64,000 bases of DNA from an uncultured Christensenella sp. (lineage in GTDB: Bacteria; Bacillota; Clostridia; Christensenellales; UBA1242): the NCBI GenBank assembly GCA_949292875.1, contig CASFBJ010000004.1, positions 15,903 through 79,902 of the forward strand, written 5' to 3'. The notes under the pieces are model-generated. The model made no database searches, was not told the DNA's origin, and saw only the letters and a list, made by a program, of their open reading frames with translations. A program made the translations under genes and the position numbers. Numbering within the stretch: position 1 is the first letter of the stretch; the number at the start of each line of letters is the position of its first letter. Shown here piece by piece: positions 15,003 to 59,214 of the stretch.

Positions 15003-15031
15003 TTTATACTCCTTTTCTTTTGTTAAATTTA

Positions 15032-21787: not shown

Positions 21788-21989
21788 ACACTCTCCTAAA
21801 ACCTTTATAATTATTTATAATTATAACATTATTATTTTCAATTTGTAAACAAATATAAGCAATTTTTGACAAAGTTACCTTTTTTATTATAAAAAAAGTA
21901 TACATACAATTTCAAACAATGCTTTATAGTGAGAAGTAAGTGTATTTTTGCATTTTTTTGTGCTTTTTACCGCGTGTTTTGGAGGTGTT

Positions 21990-24275: not shown

Positions 24276-24413
24276 TAGTAACCATTTTTAATAATTTGTT
24301 ACACGTTATATATTTGAAATTAAAAGCAAAAAACATTTGCGCTTTTTGTAATTTTCTTTTATAATTGTATATATTTACACAATAAAATTTTGTTTACGAA
24401 TTAGGAGAAATAA

Positions 24414-38835: not shown

Positions 38836-39030
38836 TTAATCTTGTTTGTTGTCATTTGTTTTATTTTCTACTTGTGCAGTTGTTTCGGTTTTTTTCTTTC
38901 TAGGTTTTCTAGGTTTGTTCGTTTTTTCTTCTTCTTCTGCCTTTTCTTGTTCTTTAGTTTGCTTTTTTACTTTTTTAGTAGTTGCTTCTTTTTTTGTGTC
39001 TGTATTATCTTCTACTACTATTTCAGTCAC
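38836..39030 (-). CDS. 64-aa Lys/Glu/Thr-rich ORF, probably the frameshifted C-terminal tail of the upstream protein
   Basis: GTG overlaps the upstream TGA (GTGA), no SD; one extra A in the A7 run would fuse the frames. Confidence 0.5.
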   Translation of the reverse strand: MTEIVVEDNTDTKKEATTKKVKKQTKEQEKAEEEEKTNKPRKPRKKKTETTAQVENKTNDNKQD

Positions 39031-42197: not shown

Positions 42198-42653
42198 AGT
42201 GTCTATATGACTCCTTAATATATATTTCATGGTTAAAATACTTTTCTAGTATACATTACTTATAGCCAAAACGCAAACATTTTATAAATAAAATTTATAT
42301 ATTATACAATATATTTCTTAATTTAATTAGTGAAAGCAAATCAGGTAGTCAAAAGTAGAGTGAGAAAAGAGGATTAGTGAAAGATTAAAAAAAAGAAAGG
42401 AAAATGAGTAAACTTAAACTTTTTAAACATGAAAGAAATTTTTAATATTGCAAATACTAAATGTATGAATGATTTTTTTAATAATAAATTTTCCATAAAT
42501 AATAAAAAAAAGTGGATAAGTAGTAATCAAAAATATTTTGAAAACTTAACTAATTTATTGCCTAAACGAATGTATAGTAAAGTATATATGTCTACATTGC
42601 AAACAAAAAATGAAATTGCATTAAAACAAGATTTAGGTAAAGTAGATACAAAA

Positions 42654-43034
42654 ATGAGTGTAGGTAGAAAAATACTGTCAAGCGTTTTAAGTTTTTGCGC
42701 TGGTGTAATAAATGGCTTTTTTGGTGGTGGTGCAGGAATGCTTATAGTTCCTATACTTGAAAAAGTGAATAAATTAGAAACTAAAAAGGCTCATGCTACG
42801 GCTGTATTTGTTGTCTTGCCACTTTGTATTTTTAGCGTTATTTCATATCTAATTATAGATAAGTTTTCTTTTGAAAATGGCTGGTGGGTAACTCTAGGTG
42901 TTGTAATTGGAGGTGTAATAGGTGCTTTTCTTTTAAAAAAATTGAACGCAAAATATATACGATTTATATTTGCACTACTTGTGCTTGGTAGTGGAGTGAA
43001 ATTATTTATAGATAGCATTGGTTTTATTATTTAA
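42654..43034 (+). CDS. Half-size TauE/SafE (TSUP) sulfite exporter family protein; ORF open from 42429
   Basis: AGVINGFFGGGAGMLIVP, AHATAVFV.LPL, GGVIGAFLL. Confidence 0.8.
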   Translation: MSVGRKILSSVLSFCAGVINGFFGGGAGMLIVPILEKVNKLETKKAHATAVFVVLPLCIFSVISYLIIDKFSFENGWWVTLGVVIGGVIGAFLLKKLNAKYIRFIFALLVLGSGVKLFIDSIGFII

Positions 43035-43493: not shown

Positions 43494-43525
43494 AAAACTT
43501 GCTTAAGGGTGGAAGCAAGTTTTTT
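43494..43525 (+). terminator. Terminator after the tauE pair
   Basis: AAAACTTGCTT-aagggtgg-AAGCAAGTTTT. Confidence 0.75.
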
Positions 43526-43673
43526 ATGTGTAAAATGTGTAGGTTTTCATAGATTTTTGTGTTTTTATACATTTTTATTTGCTTATTTAGTATTTTATAT
43601 ATTATATTAATATATAATGCACAAACTAATAACGACGTATTACATCAAAAAATGTAAAAGCGAGTGGGGATAT

Positions 43674-44588
43674 ATGAGATATATAAGAACATGGAAAATG
43701 CAAAATTATAAATTACAAGACATTTTAGAACTTGCAAGTAGAGATAAAAATAAGCTGGTTAAAAGAACGGAGAATAGGTACAAGGACAGTGTAATAAGAG
43801 TTGCAAAATATATAGCAAAAAATAATTATAGCATTGTATGTGTATCTGGACCATCAAGTTCTGGTAAAACTACGACTTCAAATATAATCACTAAAAAACT
43901 TGAAGAGTTTGGAAAATCTGCCTTAGTTGTTTCTATGGATAATTTTTTTATAAATAGGTTAGATACTCCACTTCTTCCTGATGGTACAAGAGATTATGAC
44001 AATATAAATGCCGTTAATATTGAACTTTTTAAAAAATGTATGGATGAACTTATAGATACTGGTTCAACAAATATGCCTATCTACGATTTTATTAGCGGGG
44101 TAAGACTAGATGATGCCTGTTGCGTAAAGATAAAAAGTAATACGGTAATTATAGTAGAGGGGTTGCACGCTCTTAATCCTATGTGTATAAGTGAAAAGAT
44201 GAAAACAAGAACTTTAAAAATGTATGTTTGTCCTCAAAGCGGATTTATACAACCTAATGCAAATATAACTCCGGAAACTTTAAGACTTACAAGGCGTATG
44301 GTTAGAGATTTTTATCACAGAGGACATAGTGTGAAGGATACTGAAGCTATGTGGAAGAATGTTAGAGAAAAAGAAGATGTATTTGTAGTGCCATATAAAG
44401 CAGATGCAGATTTTATTATAGATACTACGCATATGTATGAGCCACTTCTTTACGAACACGAACTTTTAAATATTTCGCAAAAAGATGCTGATGCGTTGAA
44501 GTATTTGAACTATTATCTGTTAAATTCTAACTTTTCTAAAAATTACATTTCAAAAGATTCTCTCATATGGGAATTTTTGGGAATATAG
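43674..44588 (+). CDS. Uridine kinase / nucleoside kinase family P-loop protein (start uncertain, 43617-43698)
   Basis: GPSSSGKTT, SMDNFF, IIVEGLHALNP, RL.RRMVRD...RG, E...V.PY. Confidence 0.85.
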   Translation: MRYIRTWKMQNYKLQDILELASRDKNKLVKRTENRYKDSVIRVAKYIAKNNYSIVCVSGPSSSGKTTTSNIITKKLEEFGKSALVVSMDNFFINRLDTPLLPDGTRDYDNINAVNIELFKKCMDELIDTGSTNMPIYDFISGVRLDDACCVKIKSNTVIIVEGLHALNPMCISEKMKTRTLKMYVCPQSGFIQPNANITPETLRLTRRMVRDFYHRGHSVKDTEAMWKNVREKEDVFVVPYKADADFIIDTTHMYEPLLYEHELLNISQKDADALKYLNYYLLNSNFSKNYISKDSLIWEFLGI

Positions 44589-44641
44589 TTACCAACTAAA
44601 GTAAAAAGCAATTAAAGCACTTTATTAAACGAGGTATAGAT

Positions 44642-47600
44642 ATGAGTAAGTATGATTATTATAATAAAAATAAAAAAGAGAAACTATTTTCATGGTCATA
44701 TTTCGGCAAAATGGTTGCTGTAATATTTGCGTGTTTTATAGGCGTTTTCGGGTTAACTATTTTTGTAATGTGGCTTGCAGGTTCTTTTGATGAAAAGCAT
44801 ATACCGCCTGATGGTATAAAGATAGAACTTGAAAATCAAGAGTTAGAAAAAATAAATGGAAAAGACTATCTCATTCCTAAGATTGAAGTAAATGAGGACG
44901 GAGTGAGTACTTTTTCTATTACGGTTAAAGATGCTATGCTTAGTCTAGAAGAAGGGAAAGACCCTTCAACTAGGCCGTCAGTTAATGAACTAGCACTTTC
45001 AGTAGATGTAGATAATGAAAGGGTTATAAAACTTTTAAGTAAAGAATGTAAAATAGGCGAACCTATAGTTTTTGAGATTGTAAAAAATAGTGATGGATTT
45101 TTCAATGGTGGGTTTGCTGGTATTACTGTAAGAAGTTTTGACGGCGTTTACGGTACAGACAATATAAATGTTTTTGTAGATGTGCCTGTAGATAAAGTGG
45201 AAAACAACTTAAAATCTCCAAATACTGCTCAAGAAAGCATAGATGATATAGTTTACAATATTTTGTCTGTTGGGGATATTTTGCAAGTTTTTAAACCTAA
45301 GTATACACCTACTCGTTCAAGCAATCCTACAATACTTGCAAATGGTACTGCTCTTAAAGCAGATAAAAAGTACATATACAAAATAGAATATCAAAGAAAG
45401 TTACCTAATGGTGATACTATATGGGAAGATATAGATAGTACAGGTACTAGCGAAGTAAATAAGATAGTTAAGTGGAAAGAAAGTGCGAAGAAAGATGCTT
45501 TAGTTGCTGTAAAGACAGGTATATTTAGAACTTCATGCATGACATATTCTACATATAAAGAACAAGAAAATGATGATGGAAGTGTAGTACAAGTTCAAAG
45601 TGATTATACATATTTTAAGATAAATGAAGTAAATTATGAATCTATACAATCTGAAGTTACAAGACATATTTTTGAATATGTATTACAAGGAGTATCTAGT
45701 GAAGCAGATTTGAAACCTTTTAGAATTTATTTAAATTCTGCAAAATCTGCACAAGAACTTTCAAGTCTAAATGCTATCAATTTGGGTTTAAATATTACAT
45801 TGCCAAGTGGATACAATCAAGATAAAAATGCATTACTTAATGCTCTTAAAGATGTGTATTTGACTTATGAAAATGAAGTTGAAGTTTCAAAGTATTATAA
45901 AGTTGTAGGTGAAAAGAATGTAGATAATGGCAACTTGTATCCTATAAAGGATATTACAACAGAATACAACGAGTTTACAGAGTATTACTATGAAGTTTAT
46001 CTTATTTCTAAGCAAATAGGAGAACTTGCATTCAAGTTTAATATAAAAAATACTGAAAAAAATTCTACACTTACTCACATAGTAAATTTTTCTATGAAAG
46101 AAAATCATAGTTCTATATCTTTCATTCCTACACAAGATGGTCAAACTTATGGTAAATACGATAGTTTAGTTGTAAAGCCTAGTGTAGATGAACTAGGAAA
46201 AGATATAATGCTTATGGATGTAAGCGTAGATACTTCACTAGATGGTGATAATGCTCATTATGTAGACTTAAATAAGTTAGTAAAAAATACTCCAGAAGAA
46301 ACTGGTAAAGTGCCTTCATATTGGCTTGTAAGGTATTTTGTATACCTTGGTAGAACGCAAGAAGAAGCTTATAATCAACTAATGTTTGTTCAAAATGGAA
46401 TAATGGGCCTAGATGATGATATATTTGAGATTAAGACAGGCGAAGTATATGGCGTAGAAATATTAGATGGAATATTTAGTCCAAAAGCGTACGAATCTTA
46501 TAAGATTTATGCTGTTCTAATGCAAACAGATATTAATGGCGAGCCTGTAATTTATCCTGTTACTGGTACATACACATACAAATCTTGCGAGATGAATGTA
46601 AATGTAAAAGTGCAGGTAAATAGTGTTCAAACAACTATTTTAGATGATAAATTTTCAGAATTATATGTAAATGAATTAAAAGAAAATTATAGTTACTATT
46701 TGCATATACAAGCACTAATCAATGGTGGAGTTGTTAGTGATGAAGTACTAGCAAATTATGTAAAAGATATGTTTGTAACTGCTATAGATACAAATACAGG
46801 AACTGCTCAAAACATACCTGTAAGTATAGGTGATATAACATATCTAAATACAGAAGGAAATGAAGGATATTATGCAAAAATAGATGTAACTACTATGAGT
46901 GCGGAGTCTAGTAGGAATATAAAGTTTGTAGTAAATTATCAAGCATCTTCAACTAAAGTAGAAGAGTTTGGTGCTACAGATTCTTACATTGTTAAGGAAA
47001 CTGCAGTTCGTGGAGTAGAGATTACTAGTCCTAGTATAGATAATATTGTATTAAAAGCAAGTTGGGAAGCAGGTAAAGTTATATGGAGTTATACAGTTGG
47101 TGATAATGAAGTAAAACTAGTAAATGGTAATGAACTTATACTAACTGTATTTGTGAATGGTGAAAACAAACTATATACTGTTACTTCTTCAAATAGTACA
47201 AGTGTGAAAGTGCAACCTTATGGCTCAGACTACAAACTAGTTATAGGTAGTGTAATAGACGGAAATAGTCAAGTAACTATTAGAGCAGAGTCTATAGAAA
47301 ACCCTAATTTCTATGATGAAGTTGTCATTTCTTTTGAAGTTCCAAAACTAGAGTTTGGGTTAGGAGCAACTTTTGCTAACGAAAATGGTATATATGTAGA
47401 TAACGCTTCAGGCGAGATAAAGAAACAGGACGGAAGCGGAATATACAATCATGTAGTATATAAAGGTCAAGAGATAGATTTATTATCATATAATGATGAA
47501 GATAGAATAACAGCAACATTAAACATTCCTAATGACTGCAAAGATTTACTACAATTTTCATTTGAAGTCGTTACTGATTATGCGACAATAGAAGGAAGTA

Positions 47601-50600
47601 AAATAACATTTACGAAAAATCCTGCAACTAGTCAAACTATAACAGTTCTTATACAAGGATTTGCTAGTACGCTTAAGTATGTCTTTAGACTAGATAACAA
47701 CATAAAGATTAGTTACAAAGATGTACCATCTATGTTTAATACAAGCATAAATGAGAATGGACAAAGCATTCAGAATAGAGTAGTAATGACTCTATACAAT
47801 GGTGTATATTATCCAACAATTGTTTACACTAGTAGAACTAGTAACCAAAATACCATTAACTTGAATGACATTATAGATGTTTCTTGCTTAGGTGGAGAAG
47901 CAGACTTATCTAAAATGGTATACAAGATAATAAGCGGAATGGACATAGTTAGCATTTCACAAACAGGTAGTGAAGCAAAACTTTTGACAATTGGGGGCAG
48001 GTATGTAGCAAGGCCTACAATCATAAGCATACAAGTGTATGAAGAAGGTGGGCAAGGTTCATCTATTACATTTAGTTTTTTGGCAGTACCTGATATAATG
48101 CTAAATAGTCAAGTTTTGCAAAGTACGCATAAGTTAAAATTGACCGCAGACAACAAAATTATGGACGGCGGAAATGATGGGTTTGAGATTGGCAAGACTG
48201 ATGCAACTGTATTTATTGCTGAAAGTTATGTAGTTTCAAATGCGGGCGAGCATATATATGACTTAAATAGTGCGGGCGATATAAATGTAAATCTACTTTT
48301 GAAAAATGATGGAAATTCAACTACTACGTTCTATCTAAGAGATTTTGCCAAAATAGCAATAATGTCAGAGCAAGAAGATTTTGCATCATTTATAAATGGT
48401 ATAAGTTCTTCACATGGAATAAGAAATATAGAATTTAGTTGGAAAAAGTATGCAGACACTTCTAATGTTAGTTATGTAGGTCTTACAATCAATAATAATA
48501 TTTTGCAAATATCAACGGCTTCACTTTTAACAAATAAATATTTGCCTATATATATTAGACTAATATTTATTGAGGGCGTGTATATAGAAGTACAAGCAAA
48601 TATAACGATAAATCCTTATTATAGCATTGAATTTAATCTAGAAAATCCTGCAGTAAAACAAGCAGTTGATTGGGCAAATCAAAACAAGTACGCAAGTGTA
48701 ACTGAAGGTAAAAACGCTATAGTTATGTATAATACTCAAACTCTTCAGTTTAAAGATATGCTAAAAGTAAAGAATGATGATACATATAGTTACATAAATA
48801 GTTTCAATTATAACTTGCAAGAAAATCCAAACAACATGATTAAATTGCAAAATGCAACAGTTCCGACTTCAGCACAAGTGCTTGCACAAGTTTTCAATGA
48901 ATTGAAATATGCAAAAGTTGGAGTTTCATACAAGGGTGTTGCTACAGGTTTTGAAATTATAATCATAGTTATAGATAATGTGGATGTGGAAAAAGGTTTA
49001 GAAGAAAACAATATTGAAGGCGTAGTAAATAAGGGAAGCGTAGATGCAAAAGATGCGCCAAAAATAAAATCTAATGTTGTATTTAGTCTAAACGATATGT
49101 ACAAACTTTACAATCTAAGCAGTGGTACAAATATATCATTACAATTTAGTGTAGGAAATGCGGAAGCGGTTAGATATGTAAGCATAAATAACGGAACTAT
49201 TTCATTCAAAGACACAGCAGAAGATATATTAGTTCAAATAGATATAAGCACAAACTTGAAGTATCTAGATGATGAGGGAAATGTTCAAGAGTTAAAATGG
49301 ACTAGATACTTTATGCTACAAAAGACGCAACAAGTTACAGTAACATATCCTTTTGAAAACAATGCAAGTATTTTCACAGAGATATATCCAGATAATGAAA
49401 AATATGTAAATAATAATCCAGATAATTACAAAACTGGTGTAAATGGATATATAAGAGTTAAAGCAAATGATGTACTTAAGTTAAGTGAAATGATATCTGC
49501 AATAGACACAAATACGAATCAAGATATATGGAATAGACTTCTATTTACCGTACAAGAATATGACATTGTTACTCAAAATTGGAAAAATAGTTCATTATAC
49601 AGTGTTACAGGTAGAGATTTTAGCATTCCTTCTACGTTTAACAAAGAAACATATACTCGTATACATATAACAAGTACGGGCGGTGTAGATGCTTATGTAA
49701 ATGTATTGCTAAGTACTCAAGATAATGCAATGCCAAACTTAAGCATGGGGTATCCTAGCGATAAAACTCATATAAGCACAGGTGATGGAAAGCAATATGA
49801 ATATAGAGATAAGGCATTTGCAGGAACAGATGAGATTTCACTTATGTCTTATGATAGCAATGTAAAAGTAACAAGACTAAGTATAGGTAATGAAAGCCTA
49901 ACAAGAGAAAGATTGTATTTGTCTTGCAAAATTACAGGCATGAATAGTATGCAAGAAATAACCGTTCCAGGAATAACTGCAATAATAGAAAATGGTAAAC
50001 TTAAAGTTACGAAAGATGAAAACTATACGGGTGTAGATTTTGTTGTTCGTGTATATGTGAGAACAGATTATGGTTTCTATATGGAGCACAATGATTACAG
50101 GACATACAATATCTATTATGGAAATAATATAAGCATATTACCTACAAGTGAAATGCAAGATGGCGTGCATATGGAACTACAACTAAATGAGGAAGATACA
50201 TCAAAAAATATAATTGACTTAGATTCACTTTTTGATGTAATAGTAGTTGACGGCACACCTATAAATGTAACTATAGATAATTATGGAATCAAAGCAGAAG
50301 GTGGAACTTTTATATACAATGCGTATGTAGACTCGTTAGGTAAAGTGCTTTTAGACTTAAATAACAATAAGACTGAAATACCTGTAGAAGGTATAAAAAT
50401 AATTATAACGCTAACTTTACAAGGTGTTTCTTGCGACTTTGTAATAAAGGTGTTACCCAGTAGCGCAACCATAGACAATGCTGACGGAAGCGTAAATAGC
50501 GCAGAAAATCCCGCAAGCCTTGCTTGTGATGATGCTGGAAATATTACAAAAACAAATTCAATTAGCACATTTTCATTAGATGGCACTACAAAAGATGGTA

Positions 50601-53600
50601 CAGATTCTATAACAGTTACAAAAGAAGATGTAACTTATAAAGGATTAGATGATGTTGTATTATCTTATGAATGGTTACAAGAAACAGGGTTTACTATCAC
50701 TCCAGATAATGAGTTAGACCCTACTTCTTGGACTATAACTACAAACATTAAAGTGTATGAGCCAACTTTAAAAACATTGTATCTTGTACTCAAAAATAGC
50801 GAAACTATTGTTAGAAAAGTTGCATTTTATGTAATGATTTATCCTACATACAAGATAGAAGTACAAGAAAATGCAAATGTACAAGTTTCTGGTGATGTGC
50901 GTTTTGCAGAAGCGTACTCTGGTGCTATATACAATACTAATCATAACTCTAGTCCGTTGCAGTTTAACTTTTTCAAGACTTCTAGCGGAAATAACTATGC
51001 ATCAACTTTAGAAAATGCTTTTGTATTTTCATTTGACTTACTAGACATAAATGGCAACTTTGTTAGAGCGTTGTATTTAGAAAATGGTGTAGTGTATTTT
51101 GACAATACTAAAGCAAAAATATTTGGCGAAATAAAAGGCAATGTTTTTCACTCATATATAAGTGCAGAAGATTACATTTTGCGTATTAATGTAAAAGTAA
51201 GTGGTAGCAATTCTACAAAATTAGGTTATAGTTTTCAACAAATTATAGTAAAGTTTGATGCAAATCTAACACCGTCAAATGTAATAGTTAAGAGTGAAAA
51301 TAATCAAGCAAATACCCCAACTAATCCTATTATGCTAAAAGGTTCTGGTGTAGATATCCTTAACTACATAACATTTAATCTATTTTCATCATCTAGTTTA
51401 AGTGATGTTTATTTGCAAAATGGTGCTTTTGTTAGCAAAAATCTTTTTGATTTCTTTACTCATACAAGTAATACTGTGCAAAGTGAAGATATACTTCTTC
51501 TTAATGAAGTGGATAATAAATGGATACTTACAAAAAATACAAAATATGTTACTTCTGAAAATGTAGTTCAAGAAATGACACTTTATCTATTTGGCGCAAA
51601 AATGACAGTTATATATGTATCTATTCCAAGAGATTTTGCATACACTTTTGATAGTACATTTACCACTATGTATGCAAGCGACAGCCTAGATTTAAAAAAT
51701 CTTGCAAATTCATTTGTAGGTGAAAGCGGAAGTGAATTGCATGGTGGTACTATATCATATAGCGTTATAGCAAGGTCCGTAGGTGAAGTTAGCGGTATAA
51801 GCATAGCAAATAACATACTTACAATAAGCGACAATAAAGACAAGAGCCAAGAATTAGTTTTACTTGCTAAATATGTATTAGAAAATAAAGTGCATACAGC
51901 AAAAACAGTTATAAATGTTTTGCCTGAGTACACGCTTACATCAAATCAAGATATTTATTATATGGAAAAAGATGCACTAGATGCCGATTTTGTAAAAGAA
52001 AATTTTACATTCACTTATGGCGGACAATCTTTAAACTTAGCAAACTATAATATAGAGATAATAAAATCTGGAAAAGATTTATCTATAGAAAGTGGAGTAG
52101 CGTTTGCAAACTATGCAACTATAAATGTGAAAGACAAAACTGCAAATAATGTACTCGCTTCTAGCAGTGTATTTGTGGTGTTTAATGAAAATAATGTGGA
52201 ATATAAGGAAAAAATTATTCAAGATAACCTAACTGCTGGAACAGGCTTCACTTTACAAAGTTACATAGGCGAGTTCTTTATAGGTGAAGAAAAGTTAAAC
52301 TTTACTTCTTTTGAAACTTATTCAATAAGTCTTGGTAAAGCAGACCCAGAACTAATTCCTTGCGAAGGAAACATACTTAAGACTGAAAAATCTTATGAAG
52401 AAGTTATGCAATATGTAGTTGTAAAAGCAGAATTAAATGTAAATGGCGAAGTTGCACCATATTATGGCATTATTTCTATAAGACTTTATCCTACTGTAAA
52501 CCTAAATGCTATGTACACATACAATGCACAACAAGTTTCAGTATTTAAGGCATATCAGTCTTATAACCTAAATTCGTATATTATTCCTACATCAAATAGT
52601 ACATCTACAAACGAAGATGTAGTGAGTGGTAAGACTGACTATACTTTCCACCTTTACGATTTGAATGGTAACCCTGTAACAGAAAATATGAATTCATACT
52701 TTACAACCGAGAGAAAAGTAAGTATTGCAGGACAGGAAAAATATGTATTGTTTGACAATAGCAAATGGTATGTAAGTGATAATAAGACTATAGATGAAAA
52801 CGACAAAGAAGTTACCGATTACAATGGAGAAAATAGACTATGGTTTGATGGTCAATATTATGACATTATATACAATATTGCATTTGACATATCTGCTTTA
52901 GGCTACTCTATGCTTATAGATGCAAAGTATTCGTTTAAAGGCGACACAGAAAATCATATAAGCACATACTATTTCCTTAAAGTAGATAATATGGACTTAA
53001 ATATTACGCCAACTAGTGAAAAACAAGTTTTAAGCGAAGGCGATACTTTAAACTGGAAAAACTTTATTAGCGATTCAGACGGCACTATTCAAAGCCTTTT
53101 AAGTTCAGGTAAAATAACAAGTGTTACTTATGAGGCAATAGGTTCTTATTATGATATAAATGAAGAAAATAATACAATCATAAATACTTGCAACCTTTAC
53201 TCTGCAAATGTTAGCGTTATTATTAGTTTCCTTTTTGCAAATGGTAGTACATTCTTATACGCTGCAGACTTTGAACTCTCTAGCGTCTTGCAAGTATCTG
53301 CTATCAAAAATAGCGTTACTAACGAATACATTACAGAGTACACATTTTCATCTACAAATATAGACAATATTTTAGATTATATCAATTATCAAGTGCCTAC
53401 AAATAATGTATTTAAAGACTTTGCATTGCTAGATAGTTTGTCTATATCCGTAGGCAATGGTACAAGCATAGAACAAACTTTTGAGTATAAGATTGCATTA
53501 AATGAAGAAAATAATTATACATTTGTTACATATAACAATGATGAACCTGTATATGGCACTGAAAGTGACAATGATTATTATACGGTGACTATTTCTGGAA

Positions 53601-56600
53601 ATAAGGATAGCGGAATTTCAAGAATAAGCATATCTACTAAAGAAAGAGTGGTAGTTGGTACATTCTTTAATCTTACTTACTCATTTAAGGGTGGTAATCA
53701 AGAAAAAAATGTTCAAATAAAAACTACTAAGGTTACCACAACGGACAACTTTAGCGCAGAGATTATAAATGGCGATGCTTATCTTAAAAAAGGCGAGAAA
53801 TTAAATCTACTAAAAGATATTTCTTACAACAATGGTTCAATAAATGCAGAAAGTGAAAAAGACAACTTTACTTTCTATGTTGCAGATGATACGCTATTTT
53901 CTATAGATGAAGATTATAATTTAATAGCAAATGTAGATAGCATTGACGACATTAAATCATATCTTTTCATAAACTATCACAATACATCTGCAGGCACTTA
54001 TCATACGGCAACTATTGCTATCACTCTACAAAAAACTATAGATTTAGGAAAGGTTCAATCATCTAATGAAACAGGTTTCCCTACTTTAAATGATGATAGA
54101 GTAGAACCTGTAGATGGTGGACTTACAGGCTATAACCTTATTGTTAAGTCTGGAAGTGGAGATACGCAAAAAGAAAGTAAAAGAGGCGGTAAAGTTTTTG
54201 GTACACTATTTGATAAATATGCTTCTTACGATAGTGACACAAAAAAGATAACATTAAAACAAAATTTTACTACAAGTGTATACTTACAAGTTTATCAAGA
54301 GTTTATATTTACAAGTAGCGGACAAAAGTTTGTTTTAGCAAATAATTTCTCATCAAGTTCTACCAGTGCGCCTACACTAACTTGCGATAAGTCTCTAACT
54401 TCTGAAAATGGCATATATGTCCTTGCACTAAGCGCTGGTGAAAGTGCTACATTTAGCGTTACTGGTGCTACAAGTATAAGTACTGCATATCATAGTGCAT
54501 ATGATAGTGAGGATAATGGAGAAACTTTAACTTTTAGTGGTGCTAAAGTTGCTGTAAAAAGTGGTGTGCAAAATGTAGATATCCCTATCGTAGTTACAGC
54601 AACAAGCGAAACAGGCGATGTATACCATTTCTTAGTGTATGTGTATGTTGCTCCTACTATAAGTTATGGACAAGCAAATGTAGATAATATTGCTGGCGTT
54701 TTACAAGCAGGTGGTAATTTTGCTAGTGGTTATGATTATTGGATAAAGGCAAACGGAGAAACTTTAGTAAAGGAAGAAGCAAGCAAAGTAGATAAAAATG
54801 CAAAATTTTATATAGGAGTGAAGTTACAAGGCACAAGCGGAAATGTAGATGTAGACTTTGACCTATATTCTGTATCACATTCTTATGATATAAAAATAGG
54901 TGGTGTTATAGGTACAAACGATACATTACAATTCTATAACAATGTATCTATAAACGAGGCAATTACGCTTATACTAGACGGAGAGAATGCAAGCGGTTAT
55001 ACTTTTAGTTTATCATACAACGACTTATCAAGTGACAAAGGAACAATACAAATAGCAGAAAATATATTAACTATTACTCCTAATCAAAAAGCAACAGGAA
55101 CATACAATTTTACAATTAAAGCGAAAAAAGGTGATGTTACATACGAAAAACCTTACACTATTACTTTCAAAGATGCTTATGCAGTAGAAAATATAACACA
55201 TACTATAAACATGGAGTACAACAATGGCGTAATATATGAAGGTAACTATACATTGTTAGACTTAAACAATTTCTCATATACAACCGCCGGCGGAGTAGAG
55301 TATACATACGATTCTTCAAGAAGCAATGAATTTTCTAATAATGATATTACAAAAATTGTTTCTTTAGATACAATAAATAACTCAGTCAAGACTAATCAAT
55401 ACCCTACAGCAAAATGGACTTACACAAATGGATATATTACCGGCATTAGTTATACACAGCAAGTTTTTACTATAACTATACCAGTTAAGACAGAAAGCGG
55501 AGTAACAAATACTATAAAAGTAGAAGTAACCGTGAGTAGAGGTGGTATTAGTTATAGCGATTCAACAGGTATATACACAAATGCACTTGAATATGAAACG
55601 AGTACTCCTGATAGTAAAGAAGTGAGTGAAGGGGATATAAAGAAAATTTACAGTTTTCCATTCTGTGAAACTTATAAAGTAAATAACGCTTGGGGAATGT
55701 ATAATTTTCAAGGTTTTTATATAAATAATTCTAAATTAGATTACAAACCAAGCGCTTGGAACTCAGGAACAACAACATTTGCCATAGACATTGAAAATGC
55801 ACAAGATTACAATATTACTGTAACAAGTTTAGGCGATAAATCTTTTGAACCAGAATTAGATTTTACAGTTAATTATAATGGAATAAAGATTTCAAACAAT
55901 CTAGATAAGCCAAGAGAAATTATTATAAAAGTAAAGATAACAAGAATTTGCAAACCTTCAATTGGTGAAACAAATACACAGAATTTTTATTATCTTATAC
56001 CTATTAAATTTACTAGTGGAACAAAAATCGCATATAAAAATAGTTCTACAACTTGTAAACAAGGTAAAACAGTAACTTTATCTCATGAAGATAAAAATGA
56101 CTATAACCATATAGAAGTATACATTCCTAGTGGTAAGGATACTGAAACTTATCTTAAAGATATGTTTGATGTTGATACATTAAAAAATACAGAAAGTGGA
56201 TATGTAGTAACAAAAGAAGTTGATGGTAAGACAATAACATATTATATTACTGTAAAAAATGTAACTATAAGGTCATCTAGTAATAAGCCTACTAGTGGAA
56301 GTGAAATTGCATTAGTTAACGAAAATGGAGATTGGGCTATCAAAGATAACTATGTAGGTGTAAGTTACTCTTATAGTAGTGAAAGTGGTTTTACGATAAA
56401 TGCAATATCATATAGTAAAGATAAAGAAAGAGAAGACTTAAGTGTAACAAATGATAGTTTTGCTGGTAATATATCAAACCCATATACTTTAGAAAATAGT
56501 ATCATATATGAAGATAAATATAGCGAAAATGTAGAGAACAAGCAAATAGATAATGGAACACAAATAGGTTACAAAAATGTATATGGAAACTACATCTTAC

Positions 56601-58396
56601 ACAAAGGTTACATTCTTGTATATGCAAACCAGCAAGTAAACCTAGTATTTACAAGAGAAGAAAAGAAACCTGTCAGTGCAAATCTTGGACTTACTTCAAG
56701 TAATGATTACCCAGGACTAATCACTATAAATAGCGATAATACTACATTAAGCATAAGTGGGACTGCAAATGAAAATTTCCCATATGGAATAAAGTTAGGT
56801 AAAAATGATATATATGTGATTATGCAAAACATAGCAAATACTAAGTTTGAACATGTGTTACCTACACAAGAGATTGCTATATTTTCAAACGAAAGTAGGA
56901 TACTAAACTTTAATGAATTAGGAGAGTTTTACATAGTAAATAGTGATGGAAGCAAAACGCAAATAGTAGAATATAGACAATTAGAATTTGCTTCTGGAAA
57001 TGATAGCGTACTTAAAGTGGTTGGGCAAAATTTAGAAGCAGGCTTTGTACTAGAAGATACAAGCGTTACATTGCAAATAACCATATCAACAGGTGTAGGC
57101 GTTTCTTATGTTGCGTACTTAGATGTACTTATTAAATCTTCTATCCAGATAGAAACAGAGAAACTAGTAGATGTTCCGCTTGGAAATACTGTAGACTTAA
57201 ATGCACTATATACTATAACGCAAGATGGTCAAGAAATAGATTTAAGTGATTTAAGCGAAAATGCAAGTGTATCATTTAGTATAGAAGGCGACGATACTTT
57301 CACAGGAGATTTACTAGATGTCGCATACATTATGAGTAATGCAGGTAAACTTCTTAGAGTAAATATTACATTTACAGTTGGAGAAATACAAGTAGAAAAA
57401 GCAGTAATGCTTAGTATAGCAAATGAACTTTACGAACTTAACGAGATAGAAGATGTATTTACTCTATATGCAGGTCAAACTGTAGACTTAGAGTATATAA
57501 ATCTTAAATTGCAAGATGCATTAGGCTATAGTCTAGGAAAAGGTTATATATCTTCTATAACATATGAAAGTGGAGATAGTAAGTCAAATGCTTATGTCAT
57601 AGATAGTACAAATAAAACTATTACAGCGAAAAATGTTTTTGCAGATGTTTCTACAAGTGTGGTTATATATTATACATTAGGAGAAGGCGAGAGTGCTATA
57701 ACATATACATGTCCTATAGACCTATATCTTTTACCTAGTTTTACACTAAAAGATACTTTAGGTAAAGACTTAAAGAATATAGTGTATAGTTCTTTAGTAG
57801 TAAATACTCCACTAACTATAGGAGATATACAAAACAATTTCCATATTAAAGATAGATTTAATAATGATGTAGACTTATCTTTATTTGGTTTTGAGTTTAG
57901 TAAAGAGAATGGGTACACTAGCATTGTAAACGCTGATGGTGGTGAAATACAGCCTACTTATACAGAGTACACTATGAAAGATATTACGGTATATCTAGAT
58001 GTGTATCATATGCAAAATGGTGAGAAAGATTACAAAGTTGCATCTATACCAGTAGTTATACAAAGAGTGGATAAAGATAGGACACTAGTAAAACTAACAA
58101 GCGATATAATATATGCAAATGCAACGAGCATTTCGCTTGAAACTATCTTTGAAAATTATGTAAATTACATTAATGCAAACGGTGATAGAGTTACTACTGT
58201 AAGGCGTGAGTGGTTTGATGTAATCATAAACTATGCTGGCGTAGCATTAGATGAACAAAGCGAGCTAGATGCAAGTATAGTAAACAACAATACTGTATCT
58301 GGTATACAAAATACCGACTTAGTAGAGGTAACTATAAAGGATAAAGATACTAAAGAAGAAATAACTATAAGCATACTACTACAAAGGCAACCTTAA
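44642..58396 (+). CDS. Giant 4584-aa extracellular protein with N-terminal signal anchor and tandem beta-rich (Ig-like) units
   Basis: Uninterrupted 13.75-kb ORF, RBS GAGGT; single TM at residues ~23-46; recurring beta-strand motifs; no LPXTG, SLH or C-terminal TM. Confidence 0.85.
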   Translation: MSKYDYYNKNKKEKLFSWSYFGKMVAVIFACFIGVFGLTIFVMWLAGSFDEKHIPPDGIKIELENQELEKINGKDYLIPKIEVNEDGVSTFSITVKDAMLSLEEGKDPSTRPSVNELALSVDVDNERVIKLLSKECKIGEPIVFEIVKNSDGFFNGGFAGITVRSFDGVYGTDNINVFVDVPVDKVENNLKSPNTAQESIDDIVYNILSVGDILQVFKPKYTPTRSSNPTILANGTALKADKKYIYKIEYQRKLPNGDTIWEDIDSTGTSEVNKIVKWKESAKKDALVAVKTGIFRTSCMTYSTYKEQENDDGSVVQVQSDYTYFKINEVNYESIQSEVTRHIFEYVLQGVSSEADLKPFRIYLNSAKSAQELSSLNAINLGLNITLPSGYNQDKNALLNALKDVYLTYENEVEVSKYYKVVGEKNVDNGNLYPIKDITTEYNEFTEYYYEVYLISKQIGELAFKFNIKNTEKNSTLTHIVNFSMKENHSSISFIPTQDGQTYGKYDSLVVKPSVDELGKDIMLMDVSVDTSLDGDNAHYVDLNKLVKNTPEETGKVPSYWLVRYFVYLGRTQEEAYNQLMFVQNGIMGLDDDIFEIKTGEVYGVEILDGIFSPKAYESYKIYAVLMQTDINGEPVIYPVTGTYTYKSCEMNVNVKVQVNSVQTTILDDKFSELYVNELKENYSYYLHIQALINGGVVSDEVLANYVKDMFVTAIDTNTGTAQNIPVSIGDITYLNTEGNEGYYAKIDVTTMSAESSRNIKFVVNYQASSTKVEEFGATDSYIVKETAVRGVEITSPSIDNIVLKASWEAGKVIWSYTVGDNEVKLVNGNELILTVFVNGENKLYTVTSSNSTSVKVQPYGSDYKLVIGSVIDGNSQVTIRAESIENPNFYDEVVISFEVPKLEFGLGATFANENGIYVDNASGEIKKQDGSGIYNHVVYKGQEIDLLSYNDEDRITATLNIPNDCKDLLQFSFEVVTDYATIEGSKITFTKNPATSQTITVLIQGFASTLKYVFRLDNNIKISYKDVPSMFNTSINENGQSIQNRVVMTLYNGVYYPTIVYTSRTSNQNTINLNDIIDVSCLGGEADLSKMVYKIISGMDIVSISQTGSEAKLLTIGGRYVARPTIISIQVYEEGGQGSSITFSFLAVPDIMLNSQVLQSTHKLKLTADNKIMDGGNDGFEIGKTDATVFIAESYVVSNAGEHIYDLNSAGDINVNLLLKNDGNSTTTFYLRDFAKIAIMSEQEDFASFINGISSSHGIRNIEFSWKKYADTSNVSYVGLTINNNILQISTASLLTNKYLPIYIRLIFIEGVYIEVQANITINPYYSIEFNLENPAVKQAVDWANQNKYASVTEGKNAIVMYNTQTLQFKDMLKVKNDDTYSYINSFNYNLQENPNNMIKLQNATVPTSAQVLAQVFNELKYAKVGVSYKGVATGFEIIIIVIDNVDVEKGLEENNIEGVVNKGSVDAKDAPKIKSNVVFSLNDMYKLYNLSSGTNISLQFSVGNAEAVRYVSINNGTISFKDTAEDILVQIDISTNLKYLDDEGNVQELKWTRYFMLQKTQQVTVTYPFENNASIFTEIYPDNEKYVNNNPDNYKTGVNGYIRVKANDVLKLSEMISAIDTNTNQDIWNRLLFTVQEYDIVTQNWKNSSLYSVTGRDFSIPSTFNKETYTRIHITSTGGVDAYVNVLLSTQDNAMPNLSMGYPSDKTHISTGDGKQYEYRDKAFAGTDEISLMSYDSNVKVTRLSIGNESLTRERLYLSCKITGMNSMQEITVPGITAIIENGKLKVTKDENYTGVDFVVRVYVRTDYGFYMEHNDYRTYNIYYGNNISILPTSEMQDGVHMELQLNEEDTSKNIIDLDSLFDVIVVDGTPINVTIDNYGIKAEGGTFIYNAYVDSLGKVLLDLNNNKTEIPVEGIKIIITLTLQGVSCDFVIKVLPSSATIDNADGSVNSAENPASLACDDAGNITKTNSISTFSLDGTTKDGTDSITVTKEDVTYKGLDDVVLSYEWLQETGFTITPDNELDPTSWTITTNIKVYEPTLKTLYLVLKNSETIVRKVAFYVMIYPTYKIEVQENANVQVSGDVRFAEAYSGAIYNTNHNSSPLQFNFFKTSSGNNYASTLENAFVFSFDLLDINGNFVRALYLENGVVYFDNTKAKIFGEIKGNVFHSYISAEDYILRINVKVSGSNSTKLGYSFQQIIVKFDANLTPSNVIVKSENNQANTPTNPIMLKGSGVDILNYITFNLFSSSSLSDVYLQNGAFVSKNLFDFFTHTSNTVQSEDILLLNEVDNKWILTKNTKYVTSENVVQEMTLYLFGAKMTVIYVSIPRDFAYTFDSTFTTMYASDSLDLKNLANSFVGESGSELHGGTISYSVIARSVGEVSGISIANNILTISDNKDKSQELVLLAKYVLENKVHTAKTVINVLPEYTLTSNQDIYYMEKDALDADFVKENFTFTYGGQSLNLANYNIEIIKSGKDLSIESGVAFANYATINVKDKTANNVLASSSVFVVFNENNVEYKEKIIQDNLTAGTGFTLQSYIGEFFIGEEKLNFTSFETYSISLGKADPELIPCEGNILKTEKSYEEVMQYVVVKAELNVNGEVAPYYGIISIRLYPTVNLNAMYTYNAQQVSVFKAYQSYNLNSYIIPTSNSTSTNEDVVSGKTDYTFHLYDLNGNPVTENMNSYFTTERKVSIAGQEKYVLFDNSKWYVSDNKTIDENDKEVTDYNGENRLWFDGQYYDIIYNIAFDISALGYSMLIDAKYSFKGDTENHISTYYFLKVDNMDLNITPTSEKQVLSEGDTLNWKNFISDSDGTIQSLLSSGKITSVTYEAIGSYYDINEENNTIINTCNLYSANVSVIISFLFANGSTFLYAADFELSSVLQVSAIKNSVTNEYITEYTFSSTNIDNILDYINYQVPTNNVFKDFALLDSLSISVGNGTSIEQTFEYKIALNEENNYTFVTYNNDEPVYGTESDNDYYTVTISGNKDSGISRISISTKERVVVGTFFNLTYSFKGGNQEKNVQIKTTKVTTTDNFSAEIINGDAYLKKGEKLNLLKDISYNNGSINAESEKDNFTFYVADDTLFSIDEDYNLIANVDSIDDIKSYLFINYHNTSAGTYHTATIAITLQKTIDLGKVQSSNETGFPTLNDDRVEPVDGGLTGYNLIVKSGSGDTQKESKRGGKVFGTLFDKYASYDSDTKKITLKQNFTTSVYLQVYQEFIFTSSGQKFVLANNFSSSSTSAPTLTCDKSLTSENGIYVLALSAGESATFSVTGATSISTAYHSAYDSEDNGETLTFSGAKVAVKSGVQNVDIPIVVTATSETGDVYHFLVYVYVAPTISYGQANVDNIAGVLQAGGNFASGYDYWIKANGETLVKEEASKVDKNAKFYIGVKLQGTSGNVDVDFDLYSVSHSYDIKIGGVIGTNDTLQFYNNVSINEAITLILDGENASGYTFSLSYNDLSSDKGTIQIAENILTITPNQKATGTYNFTIKAKKGDVTYEKPYTITFKDAYAVENITHTINMEYNNGVIYEGNYTLLDLNNFSYTTAGGVEYTYDSSRSNEFSNNDITKIVSLDTINNSVKTNQYPTAKWTYTNGYITGISYTQQVFTITIPVKTESGVTNTIKVEVTVSRGGISYSDSTGIYTNALEYETSTPDSKEVSEGDIKKIYSFPFCETYKVNNAWGMYNFQGFYINNSKLDYKPSAWNSGTTTFAIDIENAQDYNITVTSLGDKSFEPELDFTVNYNGIKISNNLDKPREIIIKVKITRICKPSIGETNTQNFYYLIPIKFTSGTKIAYKNSSTTCKQGKTVTLSHEDKNDYNHIEVYIPSGKDTETYLKDMFDVDTLKNTESGYVVTKEVDGKTITYYITVKNVTIRSSSNKPTSGSEIALVNENGDWAIKDNYVGVSYSYSSESGFTINAISYSKDKEREDLSVTNDSFAGNISNPYTLENSIIYEDKYSENVENKQIDNGTQIGYKNVYGNYILHKGYILVYANQQVNLVFTREEKKPVSANLGLTSSNDYPGLITINSDNTTLSISGTANENFPYGIKLGKNDIYVIMQNIANTKFEHVLPTQEIAIFSNESRILNFNELGEFYIVNSDGSKTQIVEYRQLEFASGNDSVLKVVGQNLEAGFVLEDTSVTLQITISTGVGVSYVAYLDVLIKSSIQIETEKLVDVPLGNTVDLNALYTITQDGQEIDLSDLSENASVSFSIEGDDTFTGDLLDVAYIMSNAGKLLRVNITFTVGEIQVEKAVMLSIANELYELNEIEDVFTLYAGQTVDLEYINLKLQDALGYSLGKGYISSITYESGDSKSNAYVIDSTNKTITAKNVFADVSTSVVIYYTLGEGESAITYTCPIDLYLLPSFTLKDTLGKDLKNIVYSSLVVNTPLTIGDIQNNFHIKDRFNNDVDLSLFGFEFSKENGYTSIVNADGGEIQPTYTEYTMKDITVYLDVYHMQNGEKDYKVASIPVVIQRVDKDRTLVKLTSDIIYANATSISLETIFENYVNYINANGDRVTTVRREWFDVIINYAGVALDEQSELDASIVNNNTVSGIQNTDLVEVTIKDKDTKEEITISILLQRQP

Positions 58397-58422: not shown

Positions 58423-58450
58423 TTGACAACGAAAAAAAATGTGCTATACT
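58423..58450 (+). promoter_or_regulatory. Strong sigmaA promoter
   Basis: TTGACA-16-TGc-extended TATACT; followed by the inverted repeat AAAAGTAC-acga-GTACTTTT (58460-58479). Confidence 0.7.
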
Positions 58451-58501
58451 TATTATAGTAAAAGTACACGAGTACTTTTCTACATAAAGGAGAAAATAAA
58501 A

Positions 58502-58900
58502 ATGAAAAATAAAGGTATAATTGCTGGTGCTATCGCTAGTATAGGAGCAACTGTTGCTACATATCTAGGACTTGCAGAAGTTCAAAAAGAAGGCTTAAAG
58601 CAAGAAGCTATGTTAAATTATATACAAGAGATAAATCCTAATCCAAACTATACAGCACAAGAAAAGTTTGATAGTTTATTAGAATCAGTTGCAAATGGTG
58701 GTTCATCTTGGGCAAAAGAAATTTTAGATGATGTTTATCAAGCAGGTGCAGAAGGAGTAAACGCTGCATATACAGCAGCACCTACACTAGTAGGAACTTG
58801 CGCAGTTGCTGCAGCTTGTATAGGGGCACTTTTATATTACAGACATAGACAAAAAGCAAAAGAAGCAGTTGCTCAAAACGCAGAAAGTCTTGATATGTAA
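58502..58900 (+). CDS. Small Ala/Gly-rich protein with two hydrophobic segments (132 aa, start MKNKGII)
   Basis: RBS AAGGAG; N-terminal hydrophobic helix and C-terminal TM plus RHRQK. Confidence 0.8.
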   Translation: MKNKGIIAGAIASIGATVATYLGLAEVQKEGLKQEAMLNYIQEINPNPNYTAQEKFDSLLESVANGGSSWAKEILDDVYQAGAEGVNAAYTAAPTLVGTCAVAAACIGALLYYRHRQKAKEAVAQNAESLDM

Positions 58901-59185: not shown

Positions 59186-59214
59186 AAAAAAGAGAGATAG
59201 TTATATCTCTCTTT
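59186..59214 (-). terminator. thyX terminator
   Basis: AAAGAGAGATA-gtta-TATCTCTCTTT overlapping the stop codon. Confidence 0.7.

Follow-up and report, generated by a model that had tools for sequence, protein, structure and literature searches.

The window analysed here is a stretch of 64,000 nt from an uncultured Christensenella sp. (assembly GCA_949292875.1, contig CASFBJ010000004.1, positions 15,903 to 79,902, forward strand), and it contains an open reading frame for a protein of 4,584 aa that takes up 1.32% of the 1.04-Mb genome. The host of this frame is a chicken-gut bacterium with a tiny genome. The genes and signals around the giant ORF are as follows.

43494..43523, + strand: hairpin resembling an intrinsic terminator at the end of the TauE genes (stem of 11 bp, then a T-run)
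43617..44588, + strand: gene of the PRK/uridine-kinase family, 323 aa (Pfam PF00485, E 2e-19), ending 53 nt 5' of the giant gene
44631..44634, + strand: Shine-Dalgarno sequence GAGG, 7 nt 5' of the giant-gene ATG (direct sequence reading)
44642..58396, + strand: giant ORF, 4,584 aa in one open frame; 13.8-kb gene, product of 511 kDa and pI 4.6
58423..58450, + strand: sigma-70-type promoter of the small gene, near-consensus with an extended -10 (TTGACA-16-TG-n-TATACT, 11/12)
58503..58900, + strand: small membrane protein of ~132 aa, ATG behind AAGGAG, with a C-terminal hydrophobic segment
58969..58998, unstranded: bidirectional terminator at the end of the transcription unit, a palindromic hairpin flanked on either side by T-runs

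Integrity of the giant gene and its transcription unit

An earlier sequence-only reading of this DNA had described a giant membrane protein of 4,584 aa at 44642..58396; its gene is a single intact frame with a Shine-Dalgarno sequence. The source genome is a metagenome-assembled genome (MAG) in 23 contigs, which leaves room for the suspicion that the frame is chimeric or falsely fused by assembly or annotation; however, independent assemblies contain the same full-length frame at 99% and 93% identity, seven more collinear relatives, of which one lies on a contig of 99 kb, span 4,543-5,076 aa, and residues 501-1200 show a low dN/dS between strains (0.14). The collinear orthologues (G001, G070, P0008-P0012 and P0021) thus rule out such an artefact for all practical purposes.

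Co-transcription of the giant gene with the upstream nucleoside kinase gene and the downstream small gene had been proposed, and indeed no terminator was found between the three genes. For the kinase and the giant gene co-transcription is plausible from the arrangement of the locus, because the two genes are 53 nt apart, the kinase is preceded by a terminator, and five other loci (L008, L013, L014, L015 and L032) show the same adjacency with gaps of 41-57 nt; the hairpin at 43494..43523 is the likely upstream boundary of this unit. The small gene, in contrast, has a strong promoter of its own, and judging from its ribosome-binding site it probably starts at 58503 and not at the mechanical ORF call at 58439. 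The kinase is 52% identical to its same-genus orthologue, and the small membrane protein is 26% identical to its same-genus counterpart; at the corresponding position of G070 the ORF listing, which was read without a homology search, shows no ORF for the small gene.

Membrane anchor, fold and internal repeats

Within the giant protein the following segments can be distinguished.

44669..45331, + strand: residues ~10-230, family-wide membrane-proximal module (profile search, alignment A10)
44696..44776, + strand: residues 19-45, predicted single transmembrane helix with hydrophobic core at 25-43 (hydropathy, AF2, charge)
44816..48241, + strand: residues 59-1200, predicted Ig-like beta-rich array of ~10 domains, under purifying selection (AF2, Foldseek, dN/dS)
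53339..55540, + strand: residues ~2900-3633, distal fast-evolving zone, with a strain identity of 68-96% per 50-residue window
55541..56074, + strand: residues ~3634-3811, allelic cassette of 534 nt (~178 residues), replaced outright between strains
56075..56845, + strand: residues 3812-4068, kept between strains and poorly conserved family-wide, AF2 pLDDT<30
56846..58393, + strand: residues 4069-4584, predicted C-terminal array of ~5 Ig-like domains of ~97 aa (AF2, Foldseek, hhalign)

The sole strongly hydrophobic segment of the protein is formed by residues 25-43 (Kyte-Doolittle 2.73, the runner-up reaching 1.78); it is preceded by a Lys-rich cytoplasmic N-terminus and lies within a helix at residues 19-45 of the AF2 model. 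The net charge is +3 ahead of this helix and -3 behind it, a pattern that fits an N-in/C-out topology, and the proposed type II arrangement, with one transmembrane segment and no C-terminal anchor, was thereby corroborated. Besides, neither an LPXTG motif nor a lipobox, RTX repeats or a second transmembrane segment was detected in the giant protein. The pattern LP.[TSA]G is absent from its entire length and the C-terminus is hydrophilic (...ITISILLQRQP), which sets it apart from LPXTG adhesins; it lacks the GG.G.D motif and the HemolysinCabind matches expected of T1SS RTX adhesins; and a lipobox is missing from the first 60 residues and GLUG (PF07581) has no match in the ORF, so that it does not belong to the GLUG lipoproteins.

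Alternatively, the N-terminal segment could be a long signal peptide. Cleavage, perhaps near LAG/S (residues 45-48), would then release a 500-kDa protein, soluble or loosely associated with the wall. Signal peptides of Gram-positive bacteria can indeed be long, a conserved G-S-F-D-E-K motif follows immediately after the hydrophobic stretch, and the lack of a C-terminal anchor would suit secretion. Yet the hydrophobic helix is long for this purpose (~25 residues; helix 19-45 in AF2), positions -3/-1 are non-canonical (L/W and G/A), and a 511-kDa protein without any other anchor would escape from a cell that invests 1.3% of its genome in it. Moreover, across 32 genera the best-conserved parts are the transmembrane helix and the first domains, as for a retained anchor, and we consider cleavage and release improbable.

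At the level of sequence the protein stands apart from described families. Pfam, NCBIfam and PDB sequence searches returned no match for the giant protein, for family members or for the N-terminal profile (Pfam thresholds: E<=1 for the giant protein and E<=0.01 for seven other family members), and matches to NDUFA10, PTS-EI and YtmK were discarded as noise (E>0.005). Big_2 (PF02368) and related Big HMMs gave no significant match in the giant protein or in seven relatives, the lone signal being sub-threshold in P0005, a relative of 1,047 aa (18.3 bits, the cut-off being 22.8). Pfam and NCBIfam detect none of the wall-binding modules of S-layer proteins, such as SLH or CWB2, in the giant protein; a recognisable lectin or binding domain was not found in it either; and with no Pfam cadherin match and no D.ND[NG] motif, its likeness to cadherins lies at the level of the fold. 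No characterised adhesin or S-layer homologue was found, and the giant protein is an undescribed family of an already known sort of protein.

In order to examine the fold, AF2 models were obtained for residues 1-1200 and 3400-4584. Residues 1-1200 were modelled with a mean pLDDT of 79.5 as the transmembrane helix followed by ~10 beta-rich domains, and residues 4069-4584 as ~5 Ig-like domains with pLDDT 70-85. Confidence was low to moderate for residues 3400-3630, and residues 3631-4068 gave no usable model (pLDDT<30). With both modelled regions as queries Foldseek retrieved multi-Ig and cadherin arrays (E 1e-11 to 3e-22, identity 7-12%), among them titin I65-70, DSCAM, protocadherins, contactin and the S-layer proteins Sap, SbsB and SbsC. 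Taken together, models and structural matches show residues 59-1200 and 4069-4584 as predicted tandem, diverged Ig/cadherin-like beta-sandwiches; thus, the idea of a giant type II protein built from diverged Ig-like units held for the modelled parts, while its Big2-like label found no counterpart in Pfam. The overall shape is not fixed by the models, the pTM being low (0.27-0.40). Extrapolating from the modelled regions, the whole protein would comprise ~40 domains and measure perhaps 150 nm if extended, and we infer an Ig-like fold for residues 1201-4068, an extended fibre shape, exposure at the surface and a binding function. An earlier estimate had put the number of domains at ~35.

The array contains no DNA-level repeat, as had been noted: TRF yields trivial items of 9-15 nt alone, and direct repeats in the gene do not exceed 53 nt at 72% identity; in the C-terminal array a direct DNA repeat has a spacing of 291 nt. 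Protein motifs reported to recur every ~100-130 aa were weakly borne out. The protein has 20 irregularly spaced copies of [DN]L..[YFLI], where 300 shuffles lead one to expect 12.6 +/- 3.5; I.N..L.I is present twice (expected 0.2) and V.V.P twice (expected 0.7); examples of I-x-N-x-x-L-x-I do fall within units linked by hhalign, but the counts are barely above chance. Self-BLASTP gave no off-diagonal HSP at E<=10, hhalign in its single-file self mode yielded nothing, and a 3-sequence profile gave marginal links at most. A 9-sequence family profile, compared with itself by hhalign, was needed to reveal a signal, the strongest link being 4053-4173 with 4248-4372 (probability 84%, E 8e-6), followed by 2342-2439 with 4274-4382 (73%) and 3006-3127 with 4235-4359 (41%); weaker links involve 1249-1334, 2529-2621, 2779-2890, 1912-2017 with 2172-2263, and 916-1012 with 1452-1543. 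The internal repeat signal is real but very weak. Its clearest part lies in the C-terminal array.

Family conservation and strain variation

Collinear relatives of similar length, together with a profile of the N-terminal module, place the giant protein in a widespread family. The module consists of the transmembrane helix, a juxtamembrane G-x-FD, a first Ig-like domain marked by GG...I...VFVDVPV, and the beginning of a second domain (P-x-F-x-P-x-x-S). Its profile matches 88 of 201 genomes and 32 of 58 genera in a family of ~1-Mb genomes that is most likely UBA1242 (Christensenellales), and the open frames that it heads usually measure 3,000-5,000 aa (for 38 matches the frame has 3,000 aa or more). 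In alignment A10, which covers seven genera, G47, F91, G156, G157, D180, P182, V183, P223 and S226 are invariant, and the giant protein itself carries the family signature of helix, G-x-FD and first Ig-like domain. A set of 1.84 billion representative proteins contained only 14 hits; word-seeded protein searches contributed one extra relative (P0021), and a scan of genome contigs with a narrower alignment gave one named relative, Ca. Caccovivens. This relative, the genome size and the sporulation genes point to UBA1242 as the lineage. Two other ORFs of ~1,060 aa in the window (11333-14506 and 39027-42230) showed no paralogy to the module.

Conservation falls and rises again along the protein. 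Family-wide identity is 40% at the N-terminus, 10% at residues 3700-3800 and again 25-27% at 4100-4300, so that the C-terminal array is better conserved than the region preceding it. Between strains, dN/dS is 0.14 for residues 501-1200, 1.35 for residues 3201-3633 (a value above 1 that comes from 74 differences between two strains and that relaxed constraint could also explain) and 0.58 for the C-terminal flank. The low proximal ratio indicates that the proximal part of the protein is under purifying selection.

The cassette, which is also the least conserved stretch of the protein family-wide, has sharp edges, its flanks being 98-99% identical at the DNA level between strains while the cassette itself is ~45% identical with indels. 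Edges of this kind point to recombination as their origin. Programmed gene conversion from a pilS-like archive was rejected as the mechanism because both cassette alleles match the expressed locus alone in this genome, with no silent copy in its 95%-complete assembly; further cassette alleles were not recovered from the JGI metagenomes searched with a 24-nt flank.

Downstream of the cassette the last ~730 residues are 90-100% identical between strains, and the extreme C-terminus 96-100%. This bears on the idea that the protein is of the contact-dependent polymorphic-toxin type, in which the cassette would act as payload or bind the receptor and the small gene would encode an immunity protein. 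A large filamentous protein with a variable segment and a fast-evolving small gene downstream would be in keeping with it. Polymorphic toxins, however, carry their variable toxin domain at the extreme C-terminus, and here the cassette is internal (3634-3811); we reject the idea as very improbable because the C-terminus is conserved between strains. In addition, Pfam, NCBIfam and PDB hold no toxin, pre-toxin or secretion-system match, and the small gene encodes a membrane protein from its own promoter and is missing from the G070 ORF listing.

A candidate contact fibre and its relation to known systems

We infer, with a probability of roughly 0.55, that the giant protein is a 511-kDa type II surface protein in which a string of non-identical Ig-like domains forms a long fibre for attachment or contact. 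The conserved membrane-proximal module would tether the protein and probably also lead it across the cell wall. Further out, the last third of the protein is fast-evolving and includes the ~178-residue cassette that is exchanged between strains; this variable distal part may recognise the surface of a partner cell, a host or a particle, or may instead be the portion on which phages and immunity exert pressure. A cap or presenting role would fall to the conserved five-domain array at the C-terminus.

A different role could be that of an envelope scaffold or coat, a membrane-tethered spacer, S-layer substitute or protective 'fur' by which a genome-reduced Firmicute would organise or shield its surface, with distal variability driven solely by phage or immune evasion. 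The matches to B. anthracis Sap, SbsB and SbsC are consistent with a coat, as are the single large copy conserved family-wide, which suggests a structural housekeeping role, and the want of a recognisable lectin or binding domain. Against this stand the absence of SLH, CWB2 and other wall-binding modules and the fact that S-layer proteins are far shorter and build their lattices through conserved assembly domains; the S-layer likeness in Foldseek is a generic Ig-array similarity at 9-14% identity, and the sharp-edged cassette together with the distal dN/dS above 1 fits an interaction surface at least equally well. We regard the coat as a doubtful alternative that deserves to be kept in mind.

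Farm-animal guts commonly harbour UBA1242-like Clostridia, which have genomes of ~1 Mb or less and have never been cultured; they are metabolically dependent, since they lack most biosynthetic pathways, part of glycolysis and the standard transporters, and they encode many hypothetical membrane proteins that possibly mediate cell contact (PMC12306168). In a genome of ~1 Mb, an intact 13.8-kb gene under purifying selection must have an important role, and more than half of the genera sampled have its anchor module. The fast-evolving, recombining outer segment is the prime candidate for an interface with partners, host or phages. From a practical viewpoint, the conserved N-terminal signature can serve family surveys, the proximal conserved domains could be a defined antigen for FISH, immuno-EM and cell sorting, and the variable cassette is usable for strain typing and specificity tests. 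Contig C9 of the same genome also carries two GLUG ORFs, with 5,075 and 3,973 aa, GLUG matches lying on other contigs than the giant ORF. As a speculation that we hold to be rather unlikely, the giant Ig-array and these GLUG giant lipoproteins might form a contact organelle with which obligately partner-dependent, genome-reduced UBA1242 cells grip another cell, partner or host specificity being set by the cassette and the preceding, positively selected zone; if true, Gram-positive bacteria would have a counterpart to the devices that episymbiotic CPR and DPANN organisms use for attachment.

Among known systems, the Omnitrophota giants (bioRxiv 10.1101/2023.11.21.568195) are likewise very large surface-associated proteins of small-celled, probably partner-dependent bacteria, although they belong to another phylum, differ in size range and domain content, and show no detected homology. 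Cadherin and protocadherin, titin and DSCAM arrays (Foldseek 5dzv, 6vg1, 3b43 and 3dmk) share the predicted beads-on-a-string arrangement of ~100-aa beta-sandwiches, and titin also the strong mutual divergence of its domains; at 7-12% identity, and with the calcium motif DxNDN of cadherins absent, the analogy is confined to structure, and a different inter-domain geometry keeps the TM-scores low. The giant repeat adhesins secreted by T1SS in Gram-negatives, such as SiiE, LapA, MpIBP and FrhA (PMC10523503), offer a parallel in that they build an extender from tens of Ig-like domains and bind their ligand through a separate region towards the distal tip. Here, in contrast, RTX repeats and a C-terminal secretion signal are missing, and a monoderm Firmicute makes a protein with non-repetitive domains and a transmembrane helix as its anchor.

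Close parallels are also found in Gram-positive bacteria, where Ebh of S. aureus is a giant Ig-like fibrillar adhesin. The adhesin of Mobiluncus mulieris has 7,651 aa and 51 Ig domains (PMC10619420). Like these two, the giant protein is by far among the largest of its proteome, consists of a long Ig-like chain and has a presumed surface-fibre role; unlike them, it has no sequence relationship to the group (no Pfam, NCBIfam or PDB match) and contains no detected domain families that form cross-links. Their anchors are LPXTG/sortase signals or C-terminal transmembrane segments, whereas the anchor here is an N-terminal transmembrane helix, and their near-identical tandem repeats contrast with domains that are all unique (self-BLAST nil, best hhalign E 8e-6). 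Altogether, this is an unusual giant Ig-array, in which each domain is unique and orthologous across species and does not stem from recent tandem duplication.

The giant gene and its locus

The giant gene lies in a window of ~30% GC, among the following features:

39027-42230 (-): 1,067-aa ORF, N-terminus resembling a signal peptide, no Pfam match
42429-43034 (+): first TauE/SafE exporter half-gene, 201 aa
43077-43457 (+): second TauE/SafE half-gene, 126 aa
43494-43523: terminator-like hairpin, after the second TauE half-gene and before the kinase
43617-44588 (+): PRK/uridine-kinase-family gene (the kinase)
44642-58396 (+): giant gene, a single uninterrupted frame of 4,584 codons, Shine-Dalgarno GAGG 7 nt before its ATG
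58423-58450 (+): promoter of the small gene, TTGACA-16-TGcTATACT, 11 of 12 matches plus an extended -10 TG
58423-58900 (+): small gene together with this promoter, Shine-Dalgarno AAGGAG 8 nt ahead of the ATG at 58503, product with a C-terminal hydrophobic segment
58969-58998: palindromic hairpin with T-runs, 3' of the small ORF
59189-59214: second hairpin

N, S, T, I, V and Y abound in the encoded protein (511 kDa, pI 4.6), and its cysteines number only 16. In a Kyte-Doolittle scan, residues 25-43 form the sole segment to reach membrane grade (score 2.73, against 1.78 for the runner-up), and an AlphaFold2 (AF2) model places residues 19-45 in one helix. The net charge is +3 over the 21 residues before this segment and -3 over the 20 residues after it, a pattern that fits an N-in/C-out (type II) orientation. 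The C-terminus is hydrophilic, and a motif check of the protein detected no LPXTG, lipobox, RTX or cadherin calcium motif. These results bear out the sequence-only reading in its view of a single transmembrane segment and no C-terminal anchor, as do a TRF and a direct-repeat search for the absence of DNA-level repeats from the gene. That the protein is cleaved and released is improbable.

Word-seeded searches of 5.8 billion proteins recovered two variants, one at 99% and one at 93% (P0003, 4,563 aa), and then the relatives P0009 and P0021. Residues 1-1200, run with HMMER against the whole of a set of 1.84 billion representative proteins, gave only 14 matches, six of them full-length at 4,549-5,076 aa (the strain variant P0003, at 93%, and P0008-P0012), and orthologues of 4,967 and 4,543 aa are encoded by the same-genus genome G001 and by the related genome G070. 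Nine of these sequences are collinear over their entire length, with 22-39% identity to the giant protein except for the strain variant at 94%. The gene is real and no chimera, a concern that the collinear full-length relatives in separate genomes and protein sets dispel; an artefactual ORF is thus extremely improbable. NCBIfam and PDB sequence searches with the family were empty or noise, and the giant protein represents an undescribed, lineage-restricted protein family.

The local gene order runs from an opposite-strand ~1,100-aa ORF through both TauE half-genes and a PRK/uridine-kinase-like gene to the giant gene; it is conserved in G001, in G070 and on three metagenomic contigs, and more distant relatives occur in other contexts. 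In one such distant relative (L033, G015:C9), a PLD-type (cardiolipin-synthase-like) gene at 17232-18665 replaces the small membrane protein 6 nt after a 4,618-aa giant, which has no kinase upstream. Since the TauE/SafE split recurs in loci L013 and L014 and in G070, it looks like a conserved two-gene arrangement and not a recent pseudogene. The 1,067-aa ORF lies upstream of the TauE-kinase-giant block and points away from it; it may encode a further surface protein specific to the lineage. Large opposite-strand ORFs occupy the matching position in L013 (1,098 aa), L014 and G070.

The sequence-only reading had the giant gene co-transcribed with both the kinase and the small gene. Co-transcription with the kinase is plausible because a hairpin precedes the pair, no terminator hairpin was seen between kinase, giant gene and small ORF, and the short gap (53 nt) is kept in five other loci (41-57 nt). 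Judging from its near-consensus promoter and AAGGAG, the small gene is most likely transcribed on its own, with its start at 58503 rather than 58439. Its product, which would be a membrane protein of tail-anchored-like type, shares only 26% identity with the counterpart in the same genus. In G070, no ORF of such size follows the giant gene on the same strand. The two hairpins 3' of the small gene share a nearly identical core (AAAGAGAGATAGTT...TCTCTCTTT), lie ~200 nt apart and flank an AT-rich spacer before a thyX-like gene, and could represent one terminator element that was duplicated.

Predicted domain chain

AF2 modelling of residues 1-1200 from a 12-row alignment (mean pLDDT 79.5) gave a transmembrane helix followed by ~10 mostly-beta domains of 100-145 residues, whose boundaries, read from the DSSP string, are 59-180, 185-330, 334-445 (which includes helices), 448-545, 547-657, 661-785, 789-900, 903-1017, 1021-1150 and 1156 onward. 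In the PDB, Foldseek matched this model to multi-Ig arrays only, at 7-12% identity: a nuclear-pore Ig-repeat chain (E 3e-22), ciliary central-pair repeat proteins, titin I65-70, DSCAM Ig1-8, protocadherins, the SbsB S-layer protein and alpha-2-macroglobulins. For residues 3400-4584 (5-row alignment, mean pLDDT 50), confidence was low to moderate over 3400-3630, below 30 over 3631-4068 and 70-85 over 4069-4584, where ~5 beta-sandwiches of ~97 aa are predicted; the matches were protocadherin, desmocollin, titin, contactin and the S-layer proteins Sap and SbsC (E ~1e-11). The proposal of a diverged Ig/Big2-like chain is thereby upheld by the models of 1-1200 and 4069-4584, but not by Pfam, which none of the eight family members tested matched. 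By extrapolation, the ectodomain would comprise ~40 domains of ~115 residues. An Ig-like domain is ~4 nm long, so the chain would reach ~150 nm if extended, pTM values of 0.27-0.40 being silent on overall shape.

The motifs said to recur every ~100-130 aa are present, but statistically weak against shuffled sequences: [DN]L..[YFLI] occurs 20 times (expected 12.6 +/- 3.5) at irregular spacing, I.N..L.I twice (0.2) and V.V.P twice (0.7). Self-BLASTP found no internal similarity at all, while hhalign with the nine-sequence profile detected weak homology among units of ~95-110 residues, namely 4053-4173 with 4248-4372 (probability 84%, E 8e-6), 2342-2439 with 4274-4382 (73%), 3006-3127 with 4235-4359 (41%) and further weaker links, some of the units bearing the I-x-N-x-x-L-x-I motif.

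Variation along the protein and the N-terminal module

Mean pairwise identity across the family is ~40% in the first 200 residues, 15-20% over 2900-4100 with a minimum of 10% (29% gaps) at 3700-3800, and 25-27% over 4100-4300. Compared window by window with strain L015, protein identity is 92-100% over residues 1-2900, 68-96% over 2900-3633, 22-28% over 3651-3800 and 80-100% from 3800 to the end. Toxin delivery is very unlikely as a role, the conserved C-terminus speaking against it. At the DNA level, identity is 98-99% up to ~55540, ~45% with indels over 55541-56074 and ~99% thereafter, an abrupt divergence that bears the signature of an allelic cassette acquired through recombination. A search with both alleles found no second copy of either in the source genome, and a silent-cassette archive is therefore ruled out as far as the 95%-complete assembly reaches. 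Nei-Gojobori estimates from our own scripts rest on small counts (27 and 74 differences): dN/dS is 0.14 for residues 501-1200 (dS 0.039, dN 0.0057), 1.35 for 3201-3633 (dS 0.046, dN 0.061) and 0.58 for 3812-4196 (dS ~0.034, dN ~0.020). The proximal part is thus under clear purifying selection; in the distal third, selection is either diversifying or strongly relaxed.

A profile of residues 1-1200 (E<=1e-5) matched 88 of 201 family genomes and 32 of 58 genera, and outside the close clade the match was nearly always limited to the membrane-proximal ~residues 10-230. An alignment of seven genera shares one layout: the transmembrane helix, a juxtamembrane G-x-F-D, a first domain with GG...I...VF[VI]D[VI]PV and a second domain beginning P-x-F-x-P-x-x-S. 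The tether is thus kept family-wide, with most of the ectodomain diverged beyond recognition. In our tally of the 88 genomes, the module sits in open frames of >=3,000 aa (up to 4,979) in 38, of 2,000-2,999 aa in 10, of 1,000-1,999 aa in 32, and in eight in shorter frames, probably cut by contig ends. Module-bearing proteins fall into two size classes, ~1,000-1,500 aa (e.g. P0005, 1,047 aa, genus g21) and ~3,000-5,000 aa, which suggests repeated ectodomain shortening or extension, or else two paralogous lineages.

Proposed function and comparison with known giant proteins

The source genome is a MAG of 1.04 Mb (23 contigs, 95% complete) in a family whose genomes span 0.7-1.6 Mb. The only named relative recovered through the module is a Candidatus Caccovivens sp., a genus placed in GTDB family UBA1242, order Christensenellales (PMC8035907); the source genome is likely a member of UBA1242 as well. 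UBA1242 has been described as having no biosynthesis of amino acids, nucleotides or lipids and as missing standard transporters and parts of glycolysis, as retaining sporulation genes and as probably an obligate symbiont or parasite (PMC12306168).

We propose that the giant protein would form a long surface fibre, its outer part in contact with another surface, because a single N-terminal anchor precedes a very long chain of predicted Ig-like domains, and because the base is conserved, the distal segment evolves fast and recombines, and the terminal array is better conserved again. It may be the conserved proximal domains that cross the wall. Since the lineage is predicted to depend on other cells, the most economical function would be to attach the bacterium to a partner cell or to the surface of the host or of a particle (probability about 0.55); a non-adhesive envelope scaffold or coat is rather unlikely. 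The protein is of interest chiefly as a way into the biology of gut Firmicutes that are uncultured and have reduced genomes.

The source genome also carries two adjacent GLUG-motif ORFs of 5,075 and 3,973 aa (contig C9, about 11600-26800), so that ~4% of it encodes three giant surface proteins; a further GLUG-motif ORF of 1,944 aa lies on contig C20. The giant protein is distinct from such GLUG beta-helix giant lipoproteins. It is alike in kind to giant Ig-array adhesins such as the 7,651-aa Mobiluncus protein (PMC10619420), Ebh, SiiE and MpIBP, but no sequence-level comparison places it among them, and it differs from them in anchor type, lack of repetitiveness and host lineage.
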